64,000 nt of DNA from Bacteroidaceae bacterium. GTDB taxonomy: Bacteria > Bacteroidota > Bacteroidia > Bacteroidales > Bacteroidaceae. The stretch covers positions 77-64,076 of the forward strand of contig JAFUGG010000016.1 of the NCBI GenBank assembly GCA_017469525.1. Direction: 5' to 3'. Each line of letters begins with the position of its first letter. Position 1 is the stretch's first letter. The notes under the pieces are model-generated. The model made no database searches. It had not been told where the DNA came from and saw nothing but the letters and a program-made list of their open reading frames with translations. The position numbers and the translations under genes are program-made. Shown piece after piece: positions 1,968-10,990 of this stretch.

Positions 1968-3653
1968 TTAGGGGAGGGTTGGGGAGAGGCTTTCCTTCTC
2001 CTCTTCCGTCAAGTAGGGCGAGAGCTCGTCATATACTTTCTTATGATATGTATTGAGGTAAGTAATTTCTTCTGGCGTCATCATGTCCCAGATGACGGGT
2101 GTGAGGTCGATTGGGCAAAGCGTGAGGGGTTCGAGATGCAGGAAGCGGCCGAACTCCGTTTCGCCGTCCTCGACGATGAGCATCGTGTTCTCGATGCGCA
2201 CGCCATGCTTGCCTTGTCGGTAGATGCCGGGCTCGTTGGTGACCGTCATGCCTGCATGCAGCGGGGCAGGCTTCCATGTGTGTCGAATCTGATGAGGCCC
2301 TTCGTGCACACACAGATACGAGCCGACGCCGTGACCGGTGCCGTGTCCGTAGTTGATGCCGTGCTGCCACATCGCATAACGTGCCAGGGCATCTATCTGC
2401 GTGCCGCTTATTCCGTCGGGGAACCTGGTGAGCGCCAAACGGATATGTCCCTTGAGAACCAAGGTGTAGTCAAGTCGTTCCTCGTCCGTCAAGGGACCGA
2501 GCGCGATGGTTCGCGTGATGTCTGTCGTGCCGTCTTGATATTGGGCGCCGCTGTCCAGCAGCAGCAAGCCTTTCGGTTTGAGCACGACATCCGACTCCGG
2601 CGTGGCTTCGTAGTGGACGATGGCACCATGCGGTCCGTAGGCAGCAATCGTGTCGAACGAGAGGCCTCGATACAGGTCTTGCTCTGCCCTGAGAGCCGTC
2701 AACTTCCTGTCGATGCTGAGTTCTGTCTCCTTTCCTGCTTCTACGGCTGGCTTCAACCAACGCAGGAACCGCACCATCGCCACGCCATCTCGAATCATCG
2801 CCCTGCGGAAACCTTCAATTTCAGCATGGTTCTTAATCGATTTCATAGCGGGAATAGGGTCGAAAGCCTTGCTTTCAAAGCTTGGTTTGCCATAAGGAAG
2901 AACCTTTACACCTATTCTATTTAGGTAGTTCTTAACGCTGTCATCGAGCTTTTCGCTGTCGATGAAGAGCGTCACATCATCTTGCGTGAGCAAGACATAG
3001 CAGACGAAAACGGGGTTGCAATGTACGTCGGAGCCTCGCATATTGAGGAGCCAGGCGATTTCATCCAGTTGGGAGATGACGAGATACTCAGCCTTTTGCT
3101 CCCTCATGGCCTGCCGCACGCGCTCAATCTTGCTTTCGGCCGACTCGCCGGCAAACTCCAGAGGCTGAATCTCGACCTTGTTCTTGGGGATGGGCGGGCG
3201 GTCTGTCCATAGTTCCTGGGCTGGGTCGAGGTCCGTTCTGAGCTTGATGCCAGCCTTGCCCAACGCAGCTTCCAACTCCTCGATTTCAGTTGCGGTAAAG
3301 ACTTCGCCGTCGATGCCAACCACTTCCCCTTCTTTGAGTTGCTGACAAAGCCACTCAGTGATGGTCGGCGTCTCTGCCAATCCTTCCTTCATTAAATGGA
3401 AGGGTGTGCCACTGAGTTGCTGCTCGGCTGCGATGAAATAACGGCTGTCCGTCCAGAGTGCTGCGTCGGAAAGGGTGACGACAGCTGTTCCGGCACTTCC
3501 GTCGAAACCGCTTATCCACTGCCGCGTCTGCCAATGCCGAGGCACATACTCGCCCTGATGCGGGTCTGTGCTGGGGAAGATGAAGGCCTGCAGGCCGTTA
3601 CGTCGCAGATATTCATGTAGTTCCTTGACTCTTTCTTCTATGCTTGTTGCCAT
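1968..3653 (-). CDS. Xaa-Pro aminopeptidase (peptidase M24B, aminopeptidase P family)
   Basis: 561-aa ORF. It has a creatinase-like N-terminal region (GFDGSAGTAVVT) and an M24 pita-bread metal-site context (DSGAQYQDGTTDITRT, GHGVGSYLCVHEGP, TNEPG). Confidence 0.8.
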   Translation of the reverse strand: MATSIEERVKELHEYLRRNGLQAFIFPSTDPHQGEYVPRHWQTRQWISGFDGSAGTAVVTLSDAALWTDSRYFIAAEQQLSGTPFHLMKEGLAETPTITEWLCQQLKEGEVVGIDGEVFTATEIEELEAALGKAGIKLRTDLDPAQELWTDRPPIPKNKVEIQPLEFAGESAESKIERVRQAMREQKAEYLVISQLDEIAWLLNMRGSDVHCNPVFVCYVLLTQDDVTLFIDSEKLDDSVKNYLNRIGVKVLPYGKPSFESKAFDPIPAMKSIKNHAEIEGFRRAMIRDGVAMVRFLRWLKPAVEAGKETELSIDRKLTALRAEQDLYRGLSFDTIAAYGPHGAIVHYEATPESDVVLKPKGLLLLDSGAQYQDGTTDITRTIALGPLTDEERLDYTLVLKGHIRLALTRFPDGISGTQIDALARYAMWQHGINYGHGTGHGVGSYLCVHEGPHQIRHTWKPAPLHAGMTVTNEPGIYRQGKHGVRIENTMLIVEDGETEFGRFLHLEPLTLCPIDLTPVIWDMMTPEEITYLNTYHKKVYDELSPYLTEEEKESLSPTLP

Positions 3654-3713: not shown

Positions 3714-6700
3714 TTATTGAAGGACCACTTTGTGTCCGTTCGTTATGTATATTCCTTTTTGTGGTTTTCCGCTGAGCTGTCGTCCGCTCAGGTCAAAGTA
3801 TCTGCCATCGGACGATGTGCCGTTAGCGAATGGAGTGCGGATGCCGTCGGGATCCTCATTGAAGTAGGAGCCGTCGTAGTACCATACGGGCAGGTGAGAC
3901 CTGTCGGGCACGGGGTGTGCATCCTCGTCGAGCGTCTGCGTCCATGCCTGCTTGTCGTCCGTCCTGCCAGCGTTGAGCTGGTAGCAAAGCTTTCCGCTTG
4001 CCATGTCGAGCGCGTCTGTGCTGATGGCATCGGCAGGTTTCGTGGCCTCCCACTCCGTTAGGTAGTAGGTGTTGGAGAGTATGGCACGGCCGTTGTTGCG
4101 CGAGATGATGTCGCCGCCTTCGGTGCTGATGTTCATATTGCCGAGCATCAGGCAGTTCGAGATGAAACAGGTCTCGGTGGCCCATCCCACGAGTCCGCCG
4201 CAGCTGTTGACGCTTTCGCCGTTGATGGAGCCGGCGAAGATGCAGTCTTGCATCTGGCTGATGTTGCTGCCTCCGCTGGTGAGGCCTGCCAGCCCACCGT
4301 GGGTGCCGTCGCCGACTATGGTTGCGTTGATGTCGATGTAGCTCTGGCAGCGCAGCAGCGTACCGCCCTTGAGGTTGGCGGCAAAGCCGGCGTACTTGCG
4401 GCTGGTGGCAATTGTTCCGCGCAGGATGAGGTCCTTCACTGTGCCAGACAGGTGGCAGAACAGCCCTGCATAGTCAGCGTTGCGGGTCAGGCCGATGGTG
4501 ATGGTGTGCCCGTTTCCGTCGAAGATTCCTTCGTAGTCCTTGCCTTCGCCAATCATCGTGGTGGGGTAGGCGGTGAAATCTATGTCGTCGGTGAGTACAC
4601 CGCAGATGTCGGTGTGGCCGTTCTCCACGAGCTGGGCGAAGGCACGGAGCATCTCGGGCGAGCCGATGAGGTAGTATCCTCGTTCGTCGCGAGGCATGCT
4701 GTCCATGTCAACGTAGCCGCAGTACTGGCACGTTCCTCCTTGGAACTCGTGCTCGTCCTGCCCGTTGCGCGAGGCGTCGTTGGTGAAGCCGTCGATGGAC
4801 GTATAGGGCGAGCCGTCACAATGAACACGGGAGAAACAATAAACGATGCCATGCGATGTGTCCGGCACGGGCGTGATGTCCGAGCCAAGCGTCTGCCTCC
4901 ACGATGTGCTGCCGGGTTGTCTGTCTTCGAGCATGAAGCAAGCCTCGCCGTAGGCCAGTTGGCTTTCCGTCAGCATGAATACGTCAGAGCATCCGTTTGC
5001 GGCACCCCAGTCGCCCTGGATATAGTTGTTGACAGAGACGACGTTGTCTGGGTTGCGGGCCAGCACATCGCTGTTGCTCGTGCCAACAGTATAGCTGCTC
5101 GTGACGAGGCAGTTCGATATGTGAGTCGTGCCGTCCGCCCATCCCGACACGCCGGCGCAGCAGCTGGTGCTGCTCCCGAGTATGCTTCCGCTGACGAGAC
5201 ACTCGCGGATGACTGTCCCGCTACGCGATACACCGACGATGCCGCCGTGTGTGCCGTCGCCATTCACCGTGCTGGAGATGCTGACACGGCTCTGGCAGCG
5301 CTCGATGGTAGCGTTCTCCGTGTTGCCGGCAATGCCGCCGGCATACTTTGCAGAGGTCGTTATGGTGCCCGTCGTGGTGAGGTCGTGGACGTACCCCGAT
5401 AGGTAGCAGAACAGTCCGGCATGTTCTGCGTTGCGGCGTTGAGCCAGTTTGATGGTGTGCCCCGCCCCGTCGAACTCGCCCTTGTAGGCGCCGCCTGTAC
5501 CTATCATGACGCCAGGATAGTCCGTGAAATCAATGTCGTCTTTCAGCACGCCGCACAGAGAAAGTTGTCCCGCATTGACCTGCGCCGCAAAGTCCGCCAA
5601 GGCTTCTGCCGAAGCAATCTCTACGGTGTCTGGCATCTCGACGTCCTCCTCCTGGTTGATTATCTCGTCGAGCCACGGGATGCGGTTCTCTACGTATTCC
5701 TTTATCCACCCCACCTCGACCTCATACGAGCCGCCGGCCCTCGGATTGACCTGTATCAGCTGGTTCAGGATAGGCCATCGCATGAAGTTGAGCCGCTGCG
5801 ACTGCAAGAGCTCGTTGGCTGTCGAGTCGATATAGGCAGTGAGGCTCTCTGCCGTGACATCCCTTTCCGCCCGTGCCTCGTTCCACATTGCGGCCATAGA
5901 GTCGCGCAGAGCTTGGTCGGTGAACAGCCTTTTGAGAAAGGCCGCCGAATTGCCTGCGCCACCCTTGGAGAGCGAGAGGAAGTTGCCGAGATTGTTAATG
6001 GGGAAGTAGCGATTGTCGTTGTCGAAGGCATTGTCAAAGTCCCAGACTGGACCGACATGGAAGTGGTCGTCACCTCGTTCCTTGGTCAGGTAGCAGCTCC
6101 AGAAAGCGTCGGGATTGCCGGCTAGCTCTTCCGAAAGGAAGTACTGAACAAGGCTCCTCTCGTCGAGCCTCGTGCGGAAACCGACGTCTGGGTCGCTGAA
6201 GTTCGAAGACAAAATGCTTGCCTCCATCTGATTAAACTCGCTGCGTATGTATGCAGCCTGCTCCGTTGTGATGTCATCTTCGCCGGGGCTCTTGATGGTA
6301 ACAGGGTTACCTGCGGCGCTGGTGAACCATGAGACCTCTCGGTCAGCATATCCGTCAAGCTCGAGCAGGTAGCCGCCCGTGAGGAATTCGCCTTCCGTAT
6401 CGTAGGGTGTCATCTCGGTGATGTCGATACGGTTCCTGTCTACTGTCAGCTGGTCGGTGAGCTGATAGCAGCCACGATACTCGCCGTTGACGATGACATC
6501 CACAGGCTTGCTCCACGGCACATAGTCCATGCCGATGCGACGAGCTATCTCGAATGCCACGAGGTTGCGCATCAAGGTCTTGTCGTCATAGTTATTGATG
6601 AGTGTCCACTTCCTGGCTTTTGCAGGGGATCGCATCGTCGAACCTTTGAACAAGCGCGACGAGGTGTCGAGTTTGATGCGGTAAGGCTTCTTGGGATGTG

Positions 6701-8255
6701 CCATCGAAGCGTTGCCTCGAAGACGCGTCGTGCCCGTCTCCTCCTGTATCATTGTGCCGTCGGCATAGATGAAAGTGATGGACGAGGTGATGTCGTTGAC
6801 CTTGTCATACGGCTCGACATTATCGACAGTCCTGAAGGAAACGGTCGGGAGATTAGTCAGCTGGTAGAACTGCGAGTCGTCGCCCTCTCCTGCATGGCCA
6901 TAGAACTCAACCTCCGCAACGTTGCATCGTCCATCGGCCGGGCCGACGTAGCGAACGTAGCGGAAGCCTCTCGATACATTCACATCGGCATAGCTCATCT
7001 CGCCAATCGTTCCTTCCTTATCTATAATATATAAAGGAACGGCATCCATGAAGTCGGGGCTGTTGGCTCCCTCAAAGATGGCCAGGAGCATTCGCCTTGG
7101 TCCGAGACCATCATTGCGAGGCGACCATCCGAGACGCGTGATGATGTGCGGCTCACCGAGGTCAAGGCCTACCCACGTCCTGCTACGTTCATAGGAGGCA
7201 AAGAATGTGGAGAGGTCCCCGTCGAAGGCGTTGGCAGCGGTGTTGACCGTCGTGCTTGCCTGCCCTGTCGAATAGTCCACGCTCAGCTCTGTGCCTATGA
7301 CATTTCCGAGGAGCAACTCGTCTTGAGCGCTCATCCTTGCCGAAAAGCAAGGCGTCATCAAGCAAAGGAGCAGAGCCAGAGGCAATGCTTTGCTTGCCGG
7401 AGGGAGTTTTGTCTCTTGCTTCAAACCACAGAATGGGCAGTAATGTGCATCGAAGGGTAGGGGCGAGCCGCATTCCGGGCAAGTGTCTTCCTTGCGTTTC
7501 GTCTTATGGTCGTGCACCATCTGTGCGCTGACGATGCCTGTCGGGACAGCCATGATGGTGTAGCCCATCAGCATGACTATCATGCAGAGGACTCTCCCGA
7601 GGGTCGTTGCCGGAGCGATGTCGCCGTAGCCCACCGTCGTCATCGTCACGACGGCCCAGTAGATGCTCGTCGGGATGTCGGTGAAGGGAGTGCCCGGGAT
7701 GTTGCCTTCCACCATATACATGAGGGTTCCCATGCTGATGACCATGATGACCATGAAGAGGAAGAAGACGCCAATCTTCGGGGCGCTGATGATGAGCGAA
7801 CGCATCAGCAGGTCGCCCTCTTGCAGGAAGCTGAAGAGCTTAAACACGCGGAAGACGCGAATGAGGCGGAAGGTTCGCACTATCATCAGGTAGCGAACGG
7901 GACCGAATATCCAGCCGATGTATAGCGGCAAGGTGCTCAGCAGGTCAATGATTCCGAAGAAGCTCAAGGCATACTCGCGTGGCTTGTCGGAACAGTAAAG
8001 GCGACAAAGGTACTCGAGCGTAAAGAAGAACGTGAAGACGTACTCCAGTATGGTGAACACCAACTTAGCCGTCGGCGGCATCGTCTGCAGGCTTTCCAGT
8101 ACGACAACCAGTATGCTTGCGACTATGCAGCAGAGAAGCGTGACATCAAACGTCTTTCCGAGAGGTGTGTCGCTCTGGAAGATGATGACGCGCAACTTCT
8201 CCCTAAGCGCTTCATTTCGCATGGCTTTCTGCCAAAACCTTCGGATGGTGTTCAT
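3714..8255 (-). CDS. 1513-aa in-frame fusion: voltage-gated K+ channel, zinc ribbon, signal-like segment, discoidin (F5/8 type C) domain, CotH kinase-like domain, two GLUG-motif modules and a T9SS C-terminal sorting domain
   Basis: Single uninterrupted ORF. It contains an S4-like RTFRLIRVFRVFKLF segment and the selectivity filter TTVGYGDI, followed by CPECG..CPFCG. The next stretch, KALPLALLLCLMTPCFSARMSAQ, looks like a signal peptide. CotH-like motifs (YRIKLD, GPVWDFDNAF) follow, then two roughly 300-aa paralogous modules (DIDFT.YP...AGLFC.LSG...DGTHGG). The tail GIYITNGHKVVLQ is typical of T9SS sorting domains. Confidence 0.75.
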   Translation of the reverse strand: MNTIRRFWQKAMRNEALREKLRVIIFQSDTPLGKTFDVTLLCCIVASILVVVLESLQTMPPTAKLVFTILEYVFTFFFTLEYLCRLYCSDKPREYALSFFGIIDLLSTLPLYIGWIFGPVRYLMIVRTFRLIRVFRVFKLFSFLQEGDLLMRSLIISAPKIGVFFLFMVIMVISMGTLMYMVEGNIPGTPFTDIPTSIYWAVVTMTTVGYGDIAPATTLGRVLCMIVMLMGYTIMAVPTGIVSAQMVHDHKTKRKEDTCPECGSPLPFDAHYCPFCGLKQETKLPPASKALPLALLLCLMTPCFSARMSAQDELLLGNVIGTELSVDYSTGQASTTVNTAANAFDGDLSTFFASYERSRTWVGLDLGEPHIITRLGWSPRNDGLGPRRMLLAIFEGANSPDFMDAVPLYIIDKEGTIGEMSYADVNVSRGFRYVRYVGPADGRCNVAEVEFYGHAGEGDDSQFYQLTNLPTVSFRTVDNVEPYDKVNDITSSITFIYADGTMIQEETGTTRLRGNASMAHPKKPYRIKLDTSSRLFKGSTMRSPAKARKWTLINNYDDKTLMRNLVAFEIARRIGMDYVPWSKPVDVIVNGEYRGCYQLTDQLTVDRNRIDITEMTPYDTEGEFLTGGYLLELDGYADREVSWFTSAAGNPVTIKSPGEDDITTEQAAYIRSEFNQMEASILSSNFSDPDVGFRTRLDERSLVQYFLSEELAGNPDAFWSCYLTKERGDDHFHVGPVWDFDNAFDNDNRYFPINNLGNFLSLSKGGAGNSAAFLKRLFTDQALRDSMAAMWNEARAERDVTAESLTAYIDSTANELLQSQRLNFMRWPILNQLIQVNPRAGGSYEVEVGWIKEYVENRIPWLDEIINQEEDVEMPDTVEIASAEALADFAAQVNAGQLSLCGVLKDDIDFTDYPGVMIGTGGAYKGEFDGAGHTIKLAQRRNAEHAGLFCYLSGYVHDLTTTGTITTSAKYAGGIAGNTENATIERCQSRVSISSTVNGDGTHGGIVGVSRSGTVIRECLVSGSILGSSTSCCAGVSGWADGTTHISNCLVTSSYTVGTSNSDVLARNPDNVVSVNNYIQGDWGAANGCSDVFMLTESQLAYGEACFMLEDRQPGSTSWRQTLGSDITPVPDTSHGIVYCFSRVHCDGSPYTSIDGFTNDASRNGQDEHEFQGGTCQYCGYVDMDSMPRDERGYYLIGSPEMLRAFAQLVENGHTDICGVLTDDIDFTAYPTTMIGEGKDYEGIFDGNGHTITIGLTRNADYAGLFCHLSGTVKDLILRGTIATSRKYAGFAANLKGGTLLRCQSYIDINATIVGDGTHGGLAGLTSGGSNISQMQDCIFAGSINGESVNSCGGLVGWATETCFISNCLMLGNMNISTEGGDIISRNNGRAILSNTYYLTEWEATKPADAISTDALDMASGKLCYQLNAGRTDDKQAWTQTLDEDAHPVPDRSHLPVWYYDGSYFNEDPDGIRTPFANGTSSDGRYFDLSGRQLSGKPQKGIYITNGHKVVLQ

Positions 8256-8305: not shown

Positions 8306-9469
8306 TCAGAAGAGCGTGTTCTCGATTATCTTGCCCATCTGCCAAACGCAACGTACGTTGAGCTTCTCGTCGAGTATGACAATGTCGGCATCCTTGCCTC
8401 GAGCCAATGCGCCCTTTCTGCCAAAGACGCCCATGATGTGTGCCGGCGTTTCGCTTGCCATGCGGACTGCATCCTCCAGAGGCACTTCTGCTTGCTGCAC
8501 CATGGTGCGGACCAGTCGGTCGGTTGTAGCGATGGATCCTGCCAAGGCACTGCGGTCGGCGAGCTTGCAGACGCCGTCCTCGATGATGACACGGTCGTCG
8601 AAAGCCTTTGCGTCCGACGGAGCTGCAGCCACAGCCAAGGCATCCGTGATGAGAGCCATGCGTTCGACGCCCTTAATCTTATAGGCCATGCGGAGGATTG
8701 TGGGCGGAACGTGGATGCCGTCGGCAATACATTCGATGGTCATATCGTCAATGAGATAGACGCTTTCGACAGTGCCCTCGTACTTGTAGCCCATTTTGTT
8801 GTGGAAGCCAGGCATGGCGTTGTAGAAGTGCGTGACATGGGTGAAGCCTGCTTCGAAAGCGGCTTTCACATCGTCGTACTCAGCGTTGGTATGTGCTATA
8901 CTTGGCAAGATTCCCTTCTCTGCGCAGTAGCGTCCGAACTGCAAGGCGCCCGGAAGCTCCGGGGCAGCGTCCCATCGTGCCAGACATTCCGACTTTTCCA
9001 CGATGGGGATGTACTCGTTGGGGTCAGGGTTCTTAATCCATCCCGGTTGCTGTGCCCCTGCTTTTGTGGGGTTGAGGTAGTGTCCCTCGAGGTGCAGGCC
9101 GAGGATGGGCGAGTCCTTCTCCTGCATGAGTTTGGCGCAGGTCTGTACTGCTTTCTCAATCATGGGCACCGTACTGCTCGAGAGCGTCGGGAAGATGGCG
9201 GTTGTGCCATGCTTTGCGTGAGCGGCAACGGCGGTACGGAACGCTTCGGGCGTACCTTCTTGGAAGTCACGGCCGCCGCCTCCGTGGACGTGCATGTCGA
9301 TGAATCCTGGCACGACGCACATGCCTTTTGCATCGACGAGGTCCGCTCCGATGACGGCCAAATCGCAGTTCGTAACTTCAAGAATCTTGTTGTCTCTGAG
9401 GATGACGCTGCCGTTCTTGAGCCATCCCTGCGGCGTCAAGATTTTGGCATTGATGATTTGTGTTAACAT
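8306..9469 (-). CDS. nagA: N-acetylglucosamine-6-phosphate deacetylase
   Basis: 387-aa amidohydrolase with FIDMHVHGGGG, the typical NagA metal-binding motif, and overall NagA-like length and layout. Confidence 0.85.
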   Translation of the reverse strand: MLTQIINAKILTPQGWLKNGSVILRDNKILEVTNCDLAVIGADLVDAKGMCVVPGFIDMHVHGGGGRDFQEGTPEAFRTAVAAHAKHGTTAIFPTLSSSTVPMIEKAVQTCAKLMQEKDSPILGLHLEGHYLNPTKAGAQQPGWIKNPDPNEYIPIVEKSECLARWDAAPELPGALQFGRYCAEKGILPSIAHTNAEYDDVKAAFEAGFTHVTHFYNAMPGFHNKMGYKYEGTVESVYLIDDMTIECIADGIHVPPTILRMAYKIKGVERMALITDALAVAAAPSDAKAFDDRVIIEDGVCKLADRSALAGSIATTDRLVRTMVQQAEVPLEDAVRMASETPAHIMGVFGRKGALARGKDADIVILDEKLNVRCVWQMGKIIENTLF

Positions 9470-9541: not shown

Positions 9542-10936
9542 TTAGTGGGGGGCCACCATGCTGTAGACGACGTCCATGATTTTCTTGCCGATGGCGTCGG
9601 CGTCCTCCATTGTGCTGGCTTCGCTATAGACGCGGATGATGGGCTCCGTATTGCTCTTTCGGAGATGCACCCACTTGTCGGGGAAGTCTATTTTGACCCC
9701 ATCTATGTCGTTCACCTCTTCGTTTGCGTACATTTCCTTGACCTTGGCGAGTATAGCATCGACGTCCGTCTCGGGAGTCAGGTCGATGCGGTTCTTGGCG
9801 ATGAAGTATGGGGGATATGTGGCACGCAGTTGGCTGGCCGTCATCTGCCTTTTTGCGAGGTAGGTGAGGATGAGTGCGATGCCAACGAGAGCGTCGCGTC
9901 CGTAGTGAGCCGCCGGATAGATGACGCCGCCGTTGCCTTCTCCGCCGATGACGGCGCCCGTCTCCTTCATCTTCGTCACGACGTTGACTTCGCCCACGGC
10001 TGCAGCGTTGTACTCGCAGCCGTACTTGCGAGTGACGTCACGCAGGGCGCGGGTCGAGCTGAGATTGCTGACCGTGTTGCCCGGCGTATGCTGCAGGATG
10101 TAGTCGGCCACCGTGACGAGTGTGTACTCTTCGCCGTACATTGTGCCGTCTTCACAGAAGAGGGCGAGGCGGTCCACATCAGGGTCAACGACAAAAGCGA
10201 TGTCGTGCTGGCCCTTTTGCATCAGTGCTTTGATGTCGGCGAGGTTCTTCTCGAGCGGTTCCGGATTGTGCTGGAAGTCGCCGGTCGGTTCGGTGAAGAG
10301 GCCGGTGACGGTCTTCACGCCGAGCTGTTCGAGCAGTTTCGGCAGGATGACACCGCCGACGCTGTTGACGCTGTCGAAGGCTACGCGGAAGTTTGCCTTC
10401 TTGATGGCTTCCACGTCCACCAGGTCGAGTCCGAGCACGAGGTCGATGTGTTTCTGGTCGTAAGTATTGTCCTCGCGGTAAGAACCCATGTGGTCGACGT
10501 CAGCGTATTCGAAGTCTTCGGCTTCTGCGATGCGGAGCACCTCGTTGCCTTCCTCTTTGTTGAGGAACTCGCCCTTCTCGTTGAGAAGCTTCAAGGCGTT
10601 CCACATGCGTGGATTGTGGCTGGCTGTGATGATGATGCCGCCGCATGCTCCTTCCATGGTGACGGCAATCTCGGTGGTGGGTGTCGTGGCGAGTCCGATG
10701 TCAACCACGTCGAAGCCCATTCCCATGAGCGTGCCGCAGACCACGTTCTTCACCATGGGGCCGGAGATGCGGGCGTCTCTGCCGACCACTATCTTGTTGC
10801 TTCCGACCTTAGCCTGTCGGCGGATGAGGGTTGCGTAGGCAGATGTGAACTTCACGATGTCGAGGGGATTGAGCGTATCGCCCGTCCTTCCTCCGATGGT
10901 TCCTCTGATTCCAGAGATTGATTTGATGAGACTCAT
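9542..10936 (-). CDS. glmM: Phosphoglucosamine mutase (alpha-D-phosphohexomutase family)
   Basis: N-terminus MSLIKSISGIRGTIGG, active-site loop TASHNP and GGEGNGG. I chose the start at the second ATG (10936), which matches the usual Bacteroidota GlmM N-terminus. Confidence 0.8.
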   Translation of the reverse strand: MSLIKSISGIRGTIGGRTGDTLNPLDIVKFTSAYATLIRRQAKVGSNKIVVGRDARISGPMVKNVVCGTLMGMGFDVVDIGLATTPTTEIAVTMEGACGGIIITASHNPRMWNALKLLNEKGEFLNKEEGNEVLRIAEAEDFEYADVDHMGSYREDNTYDQKHIDLVLGLDLVDVEAIKKANFRVAFDSVNSVGGVILPKLLEQLGVKTVTGLFTEPTGDFQHNPEPLEKNLADIKALMQKGQHDIAFVVDPDVDRLALFCEDGTMYGEEYTLVTVADYILQHTPGNTVSNLSSTRALRDVTRKYGCEYNAAAVGEVNVVTKMKETGAVIGGEGNGGVIYPAAHYGRDALVGIALILTYLAKRQMTASQLRATYPPYFIAKNRIDLTPETDVDAILAKVKEMYANEEVNDIDGVKIDFPDKWVHLRKSNTEPIIRVYSEASTMEDADAIGKKIMDVVYSMVAPH

Positions 10937-10990
10937 GGTTATATACAATTTAATGATTTACGATTGCAAGATTGTTGCGATTTGAGAATC

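Follow-up and report, generated by a model that had tools for sequence, protein, structure and literature searches.

On the minus strand of the analysed stretch of DNA (the window, 64,000 nucleotides from contig JAFUGG010000016.1 of the Bacteroidaceae bacterium assembly GCA_017469525.1), a single open reading frame (ORF) of 1513 codons plus stop spans positions 3714..8255 and begins with ATG. It joins a six-transmembrane (six-TM), voltage-gated-type cation channel with a zinc ribbon to a large CotH protein with a putative type IX secretion system (T9SS) sorting tail, and no stop codon lies between the two halves. A first-pass annotation had described this frame and offered three explanations for it, i.e. 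a genuine fusion in which a signal-like helix acts as a seventh TM segment while signal peptidase releases the cargo, a channel gene that has lost its stop codon, or internal initiation at a TTG codon. The single frame was borne out by our analysis, as were its channel, ribbon and CotH parts, while the names given to other parts had to be qualified. In the following, G000 denotes the genome of the window and other G-numbers denote other species genomes of the genus, of which 179 were sampled with G000 counted in. All features of the fused gene lie on the minus strand.

Architecture of the fused gene

The channel occupies residues 34-250 (7506..8156), where Pfam Ion_trans matches with an E of 4.8e-34 (118.1 bits vs a cut-off of 25), and a match to Ion_trans_2 at residues 168-245 likewise exceeds its Pfam cut-off. 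NCBIfam equivalog channel models stay far under threshold (44 bits vs a cut-off of 300). The S4 helix (7833-7895) and the TVGYGD selectivity filter (7620-7637) lie within the Ion_trans region, and both the S4 charges (R127, R130, R133, R136 and K139) and the filter are invariant in 24/24 fused orthologues, in line with the arginine-repeat channel read at first pass. The channel is followed by a cytoplasmic CPxCG...CPFCG zinc ribbon at residues 259-277 (7425..7481). Although all zinc-ribbon Pfam families on residues 253-277 remain under their cut-offs, the four cysteines C259, C262, C273 and C276 are invariant in all 24 orthologues, which upholds the ribbon, and it is also present on unfused channels of the genus. 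The DNA at the junction reads TGT GGT TTG AAG with no stop after it; the TTG at 7424-7422 is codon 278 and signal-like sequence follows, as had been noted. This linker and an internal Sec-type signal-peptide-like segment make up residues 278-310 (7326..7424), with a predicted signal peptidase I (SPase I) site between Ala310 (7326-7328) and Gln311 (7323-7325). An AlphaFold2 (AF2) model of the N-terminal residues 1-360, based on 24 close orthologues, reached a pLDDT of 46.7 and was used for secondary structure only.

The cargo begins with a galactose-binding-like carbohydrate-binding module (CBM) at residues 331-461 (6873..7265), which matches PDB 2yb7 (E 2.5e-24) and 5g56 (E 1.2e-22), a cellulosomal carbohydrate-binding module. 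The depositors labelled the matched structure 'carbohydrate binding family 6', and we take the 2yb7 module to be CBM62 of C. thermocellum Xyl5A. The earlier 'discoidin' label thus holds insofar as the region has clear CBM relatives, but Pfam F5_F8_type_C falls just short on it (27.3 bits vs a cut-off of 28.2). The CotH kinase-like domain at residues 511-861 (5673..6725) is firmly recognized by Pfam CotH (E 1.4e-41, 143.5 bits vs a cut-off of 23.8); a sequence search for solved structures returned no relative of this domain. Two putative beta-helix modules of about 290 amino acids (aa) follow at approximately residues 880-1166 (4758..5618) and 1197-1485 (3801..4667). They are true paralogues (42% identity, E 3e-56) and lie close to where two GLUG modules of about 300 aa had been placed (5650-4775 and 4715-3905), but the family name is less secure, with Pfam GLUG at 14.1 and 10.1 bits (E 0.067 and 1.3) vs a cut-off of 20.5. 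An AF2 model of the last 330 residues was of moderate quality (pLDDT 62, pTM 0.61), and its best fold match was the putative IgA1 protease 3n6z from B. ovatus (E 1.3e-5, TM 0.48), followed by streptococcal IgA1 proteases and pectate-lyase-type beta-helices. The frame ends in a putative short T9SS C-terminal domain (CTD) of 43 aa at residues 1471-1513 (3717..3845).

Conservation of the fusion

The fused ORF is real, conserved across deeply diverged species and no assembly error. A junction query of 300 residues (P0001, residues 151-450) found an end-to-end match free of stops in 24/179 genus genomes, G000 included, with open frames of 1077-1931 aa, the shortest of which end at contig edges. Hence a stop codon after the ribbon is not the uniform state of the orthologues. 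When the complete genes of the other 23 species were retrieved, two ran off their contigs and 21 reached a stop. Eighteen of these 21 measure 1512-1527 aa and two fall below that range at 1184 and 1203 aa; one has 1483 aa by a start heuristic that probably picked the start too late. In a collection of 5.8 billion proteins, at least 61 clusters (P0002-P0062) among the best 120 of 584 matches span the junction fully with both Ion_trans and CotH. Their source names are either 'CotH kinase family protein [Bacteroidaceae bacterium]' or 'voltage-gated potassium channel Kch', i.e. annotation pipelines name the fused proteins after only one half. The carriers of the fusion are a group of animal-gut Bacteroidaceae.

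With one T fewer, GGTTTGAAG reads TGT GGT TGA, a stop overlapping the TTG start, and the idea of a sequencing error was therefore tested first. The junction was reproduced with 0 differences and 0 gaps by independent contigs from two other studies' metagenome assemblies (X11 record 1, 6900-7766; X6 record 22, 7161-7616). A single extra T that turned TGA into TTG is ruled out by these assemblies together with the 23 other species and the at least 61 clusters.

Pairwise medians over the 24 fused genes (Nei-Gojobori, own script) gave a dS of 1.1-1.5, which is near saturation, and an open frame kept in 24/24 fused orthologues at such divergence is far beyond chance. The dN/dS ratio was lowest in the channel (0.056), followed by the CBM (0.083), CotH (0.105), the zinc ribbon (0.133) and beta-helix modules 1 (0.158) and 2 (0.191), and highest in the linker and signal segment (0.317) and the tail (0.352). 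Purifying selection maintains both halves, and the two sorting signals, i.e. the signal segment and the tail, change fast, yet are constrained.

A contig of 480 nt from one RNA library (X16, record 14, 7414-7856) differed at 42 positions and had a loose end of 37 nt, which, read by eye on the gene strand, is the linker of a G091-type fused allele. It shows at most that the fused stretch is present in an RNA library, and does not speak to transcript structure or start. In a second library (X15) only short pieces of the region were covered.

The signal-like segment at the junction

Past the ribbon, all 24 fused genes continue with K-Q and a basic stretch, after which come 10-20 uncharged residues rich in Leu and a short polar end. 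With the cleavage site set six residues ahead of the conserved anchor G-T-V-I-G-T, 23 genes have Ala at position -1 and one has Gly, and position -3 is small or aliphatic throughout (L 9, S 6, G 4, A 2, M 1, V 1 and I 1). Pro or Gly occurs at -4 to -9 in 17/24. These features at -3 and -1, together with the n-region and the core, amount to the anatomy of a cleavable Sec signal peptide in 24/24 genes. Position +1 is Gln in 18/24, Glu in 5/24 and Lys in 1/24; Gln at +1 is the Q-rule of Bacteroidetes (PMC5837995). The distance from ribbon to site takes seven values (29, 30, 31, 32, 33, 36 and 46 residues), all in frame. G000 has a gene for an SPase I (104.4 bits).

Unlike ordinary N-terminal signal peptides, this segment is placed internally, from residue 278 onwards behind a six-TM channel. 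Three stand-alone CotH paralogues in G000 (contigs C19, C48 and C52, 46-52% identity) point to its source. Their N-terminal signal peptides align with the internal segment, directly ahead of the same conserved stretch, and because they sit at the same position the segment of the fusion seems to be a former N-terminal signal peptide.

Among the 24 fused genes, codon 278 itself reads TTG in 14, ATG in two, CTG in four, CTA in three and ACG in one, i.e. a TTG or ATG in 16/24. Four of the five nearest unfused channels also read CPFCG-L(TTG)-K-Q, three of these with Glu next, and all of them stop 7-11 residues past K-Q. Since unfused channels keep 'CPFCGLKQE', the TTG codes for a Leu that belongs to the channel tail itself. 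In 19/24 species at least one in-frame start codon (ATG, GTG or TTG) is located upstream of the hydrophobic core. In G047, G070 and G090 the only in-frame canonical start lies at or inside the core, and G066 and G016, which count as one event because they are sister species, have no in-frame ATG, GTG or TTG within 50 codons from the last CxxCG motif. The promoter consensus of Bacteroidetes is TAnnTTTG; this motif was absent from the 400 nt upstream of the junction in 24/24 genes, and two have one 46 nt downstream.

The C-terminal tail and type IX secretion

The tail reads D-P-D/G-I ... Y-F-D-L-S-G-R ... K-G-I-Y-I ... H-K-V-V-L-Q and counts 43 residues from the Gly. It has no match in Pfam or NCBIfam, and TIGR04183 / Por_Secre_tail gave none at E up to 10. 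PMC11969387 describes short CTDs of Prevotella intermedia that span 40-55 residues. Their preferred cleavage consensus is P-T/G-I; motif B contains conserved Gly and Tyr residues, motif D has the form G-x-Y-I and motif E is basic. For some of them, cleavage and glycosylation are reported. Judged by inspection, the tail of the fused ORF fits this description and is a predicted short CTD on this basis. When the last 48 residues were compared by phmmer with the C-termini of 4996 stop-to-stop ORFs of G000 (at least 150 aa), 48 matches at E < 1e-3 were obtained, and three rounds of profile search converged on 135 tail-bearing ORFs with a median length of 965 aa. TIGR04183 itself hits nine places in G000, six of them above the cut-off; the fused ORF is not among them, and two of the nine lie among the 135 tail-bearing ORFs. 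The 'T9SS sorting tail' of the first-pass annotation is thus unrecognized by the curated models, but it fits a short CTD and recurs on 135 ORFs of its own genome. The T9SS machinery is encoded in G000, with SprA/Sov at 2659 bits and GldM/PorM at 568 bits. Among the 21 fetched orthologues that reach a stop, 19 carry a tail ending in D-L-S/N-G and G-I/L/V-Y-I motifs. In the other two, G076 and G112, a type I dockerin takes the place of the tail (Pfam E 2.4e-9 and 1.9e-11; L068:1070-2059 (-) and L081:1070-2059 (-)).

As a side observation, counts of T9SS cargos based on standard models would be strongly underestimated in this genus. Dockerins are unexpected in Bacteroidaceae; the CotH paralogue on contig C52 of G000 has a dockerin-like C-terminus, judged by eye only, and several of the fusion clusters in the protein collection also carry PF00404.

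A second transporter fusion in the same genome

A crude-window screen of the 135 tail-bearing ORFs for N-terminal hydrophobic segments counted five in the fused channel ORF and 12 in an ORF on contig C73 (L086:724-4995 (+), 1423 aa), which lies outside the window. The latter consists of a Na_H_Exchanger domain at residues 31-391 (E 9.1e-46), a cytoplasmic region, an internal signal-like segment ending in A-A-A|Q-R-P, a Peptidase_S8 domain (E 2.3e-27) and a short CTD. It is a second, independent join of an ion transporter and a predicted T9SS cargo in the same genome. The corresponding junction query (P0122) matched end to end without a stop in 42/179 genus genomes, plus one in two pieces, with identities down to 49% and frames of 1378-1649 aa. 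The junction has the form A-x-A|Q in 12/12 loci examined, and a stand-alone antiporter of about 700 aa occurs in many other genomes of the genus.

Evolutionary history and gene neighbourhood

A quick maximum-likelihood tree with SH-aLRT support only was built from the channel part of 55 genes, i.e. the 24 fused, the five nearest unfused, 20 further unfused and six additional ones, leaving out the other unfused channels of the genus. All 24 fused genes and the five nearest unfused ones form one clade (SH-aLRT 99, branch length 0.33), with the unfused genes nested inside. The tree needs five state changes, of which well-supported branches force at least two. In the unfused members G007, G141, G190, G165 and G105 (L037-L041) the channel stands alone, and three of the five share a tail of 16 residues after the ribbon. 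In all five loci the next gene, within about 150 bp of the channel, is the aminopeptidase gene that also lies downstream of the G000 fusion. A local DNA alignment revealed no remnant of the cargo 3' end in the five unfused alleles, as its scores were no better than those of shuffled sequences (5 to 151 of 200 shuffles reach the score). Because no remnant was found, the direction of change (loss or ancestral state) is read from the tree only. The simplest, though unproven, interpretation is a single origin that was followed by losses, or else an exchange of alleles. In several of the five unfused loci, short palindromic repeats were seen in the spacer past the stop.

The neighbouring genes in the window, all on the minus strand, were named from their translations only. 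An Xaa-Pro aminopeptidase-like gene (1968-3653) lies 60 nt downstream of the fusion, a NagA-like deacetylase gene (8306-9469) 50 nt upstream, and a phosphoglucosamine-mutase-like gene (9542-10948) further upstream. NagA was found upstream of the channel in most of the loci examined.

Proposed processing of a putative polyprotein

We consider it probable that the gene is a genuine, conserved fusion encoding a polyprotein precursor, which would be cut at the internal signal peptide and whose cargo would leave through the T9SS. Among the explanations offered at first pass, this one, in which the signal-like helix serves as a seventh TM segment and signal peptidase frees the cargo, is favoured by the open frame in 24/179 genomes and the signal peptide anatomy in 24/24 orthologues. 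For the steps after translation we infer the following course. The channel part (N-in, six TM, C-in) would insert co-translationally, with the zinc ribbon staying in the cytoplasm. The hydrophobic segment, derived from the signal peptide of a stand-alone CotH protein, would then enter SecYEG in N-in/C-out orientation as a seventh helix and thread the cargo of about 1200 aa into the periplasm. SPase I would cut at the A-x-A-type site, Ala310|Gln311 in G000, which would leave the channel subunit in the inner membrane with seven helices and free a cargo that starts with Gln, as the Q-rule expects. Finally, the cargo (CBM, CotH and two beta-helix modules) would be exported, and probably attached to the surface, by the T9SS via its Prevotella-type short CTD. 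The covalent link between a cytoplasmic-membrane channel and a T9SS cargo had been called topologically remarkable, but it presents no conflict, because a six-TM, N-in channel ends in the cytoplasm and a following N-in/C-out segment would place the cargo in the periplasm. A cytoplasmic C-terminus of the channel also agrees with the basic tail and the zinc ribbon.

Several observations weigh against this polyprotein reading. Cleavage and secretion of the cargo are predicted from sequence only, the AF2 model of the N-terminal part (pLDDT 46.7) is silent on the placement of a seventh helix, and curated type-A CTD models miss the tail. As G076 and G112 carry a dockerin instead of the tail, the T9SS step is not universal, and five members of the clade do without the cargo, so that a fusion once formed is dispensable and perhaps selectively neutral. 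Moreover, 19/24 species have a canonical start upstream of the core, and in these, internal initiation could supplement processing or take its place.

An artefact or recent lesion, i.e. an assembly or sequencing indel or a fresh stop loss between two ordinary adjacent genes, is hardly credible. That one T fewer at the junction produces a TGA overlapping the TTG lends this idea some appeal, but the junction is identical in independent assemblies, 23 other species and at least 61 clusters are open as well, and the junction codons vary between species while the frame stays open. The lost stop codon envisaged at first pass could therefore only be an old event that became fixed and not a recent lesion, since 24/179 genomes have no stop there. 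It is also rather unlikely that the locus works as two functional genes, with the cargo made mainly from an internal start at the TTG or nearby, under its own signal peptide, and the fused chain as a tolerated by-product. Bacteroidota are said to be independent of Shine-Dalgarno sites, which makes internal starts hard to exclude from sequence, and the TTG or ATG at codon 278 in 16/24 genes as well as the canonical starts upstream of the core in 19/24 would suit such initiation. However, the same TTG, together with 'LKQE', is present in unfused channels, where nothing comes after it, and TAnnTTTG is missing upstream in 24/24. Initiation at the TTG does not hold as a general mechanism, given the CTG, CTA or ACG at this codon in 8/24 genes, the two species (G066 and G016) without any in-frame start in 50 codons and the three (G047, G070 and G090) with one only at or inside the core. 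The fused chain would be made in any case, because a ribosome coming from the channel ATG meets no stop.

The hydrophobic segment might instead remain uncleaved as a permanent seventh TM anchor, tethering the CBM, CotH and beta-helix part to the channel in the periplasm. The uncharged run extends to 19-20 residues in some orthologues, the T9SS tail is absent in two (G076 and G112), and cleavage at the site is predicted from residue patterns. We nevertheless think such an anchor improbable, as it needs none of the small residues at -1/-3 (24/24), the Gln at +1 (18/24) or the helix breaker (17/24). The tail motifs occur in 19/21 complete orthologues and as a full short CTD in G000, although such a tail would serve no purpose on a protein that stays bound to the inner membrane, and in stand-alone paralogues this segment serves as a cleavable signal at the N-terminus.

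If the precursor is cut as proposed, one gene would supply two compartments, with a channel in the inner membrane and a cargo of about 135 kDa at the surface. A signal peptide would then work while buried behind a multi-pass membrane protein in Bacteroidota, the T9SS cargos concerned would be obliged to reach Sec co-translationally, and native Kv-type subunits would carry an extra C-terminal helix. With two independent fusions of a transporter and a T9SS cargo in one genus, it may further be asked if selection favours such joins or only tolerates them. It is conceivable, though in our view quite doubtful, that the fusion is more than a neutral accident and that monovalent-cation transport proteins (the Kv-type channel and the C73 antiporter of the Na+/H+-exchanger family) act repeatedly in this genus as co-translational membrane-targeting leaders for very large T9SS cargos, fixed at a 1:1 ratio and coupling ion flux across the inner membrane to secretion driven by the proton motive force (PMF).

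Comparison with known systems

Each half of the fusion has close counterparts that occur on their own. The stand-alone K+ channels of the genus share the same channel, the NagA gene upstream and the CxxCG...CxxCG ribbon, but stop 3-22 residues past the ribbon, with one exception at 35. In the stand-alone CotH proteins of G000, an N-terminal domain, CotH and a C-terminal sorting tail or dockerin come in the order seen in the fusion, and this domain order also applies to dockerin-bearing CotH proteins of fibre-degrading anaerobes; in both cases the protein begins with its own N-terminal signal peptide. For the tail, the closest likeness is to the short-CTD cargos of P. intermedia (PMC11969387). 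Like their CTDs, the tail of the fused ORF, 43 aa from a P-x/G-I type site, shows Gly and Tyr in motif B, G-x-Y-I in motif D and basic residues in motif E. In P. intermedia as in G000, many cargos of one genome share the tail, with secretion by this tail being a prediction in G000. The P. intermedia cargos have ordinary N-terminal signal peptides, and none is described in that paper as fused to the end of a membrane protein.

A literature search, with subscription journals mostly outside its coverage, returned no paper joining CotH, potassium channel and Bacteroid*, and none on internal signal peptides in bacterial polyproteins. The principle as such nonetheless has a precedent. In Bradyrhizobium japonicum, FbcH is reportedly a precursor of cytochrome b and cytochrome c1 that is processed into two proteins (Thony-Meyer and colleagues, about 1989-1991). 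Like the channel fusion, FbcH is reportedly one ORF, in which a polytopic inner-membrane protein with a cytoplasmic C-terminus comes first and then a periplasm-facing protein with its signal peptide, the processing taking place at this internal signal. The pairing of a channel with a T9SS cargo, recurring with a second transporter, was not found in print within the coverage of our search. FbcH and the channel fusion differ in what is joined and in where it goes. The products of FbcH are subunits of one complex, whereas no functional link is known between a K+ channel and a T9SS surface cargo, and, unlike in FbcH, the cargo of the channel fusion would, after its predicted processing, cross a second membrane.

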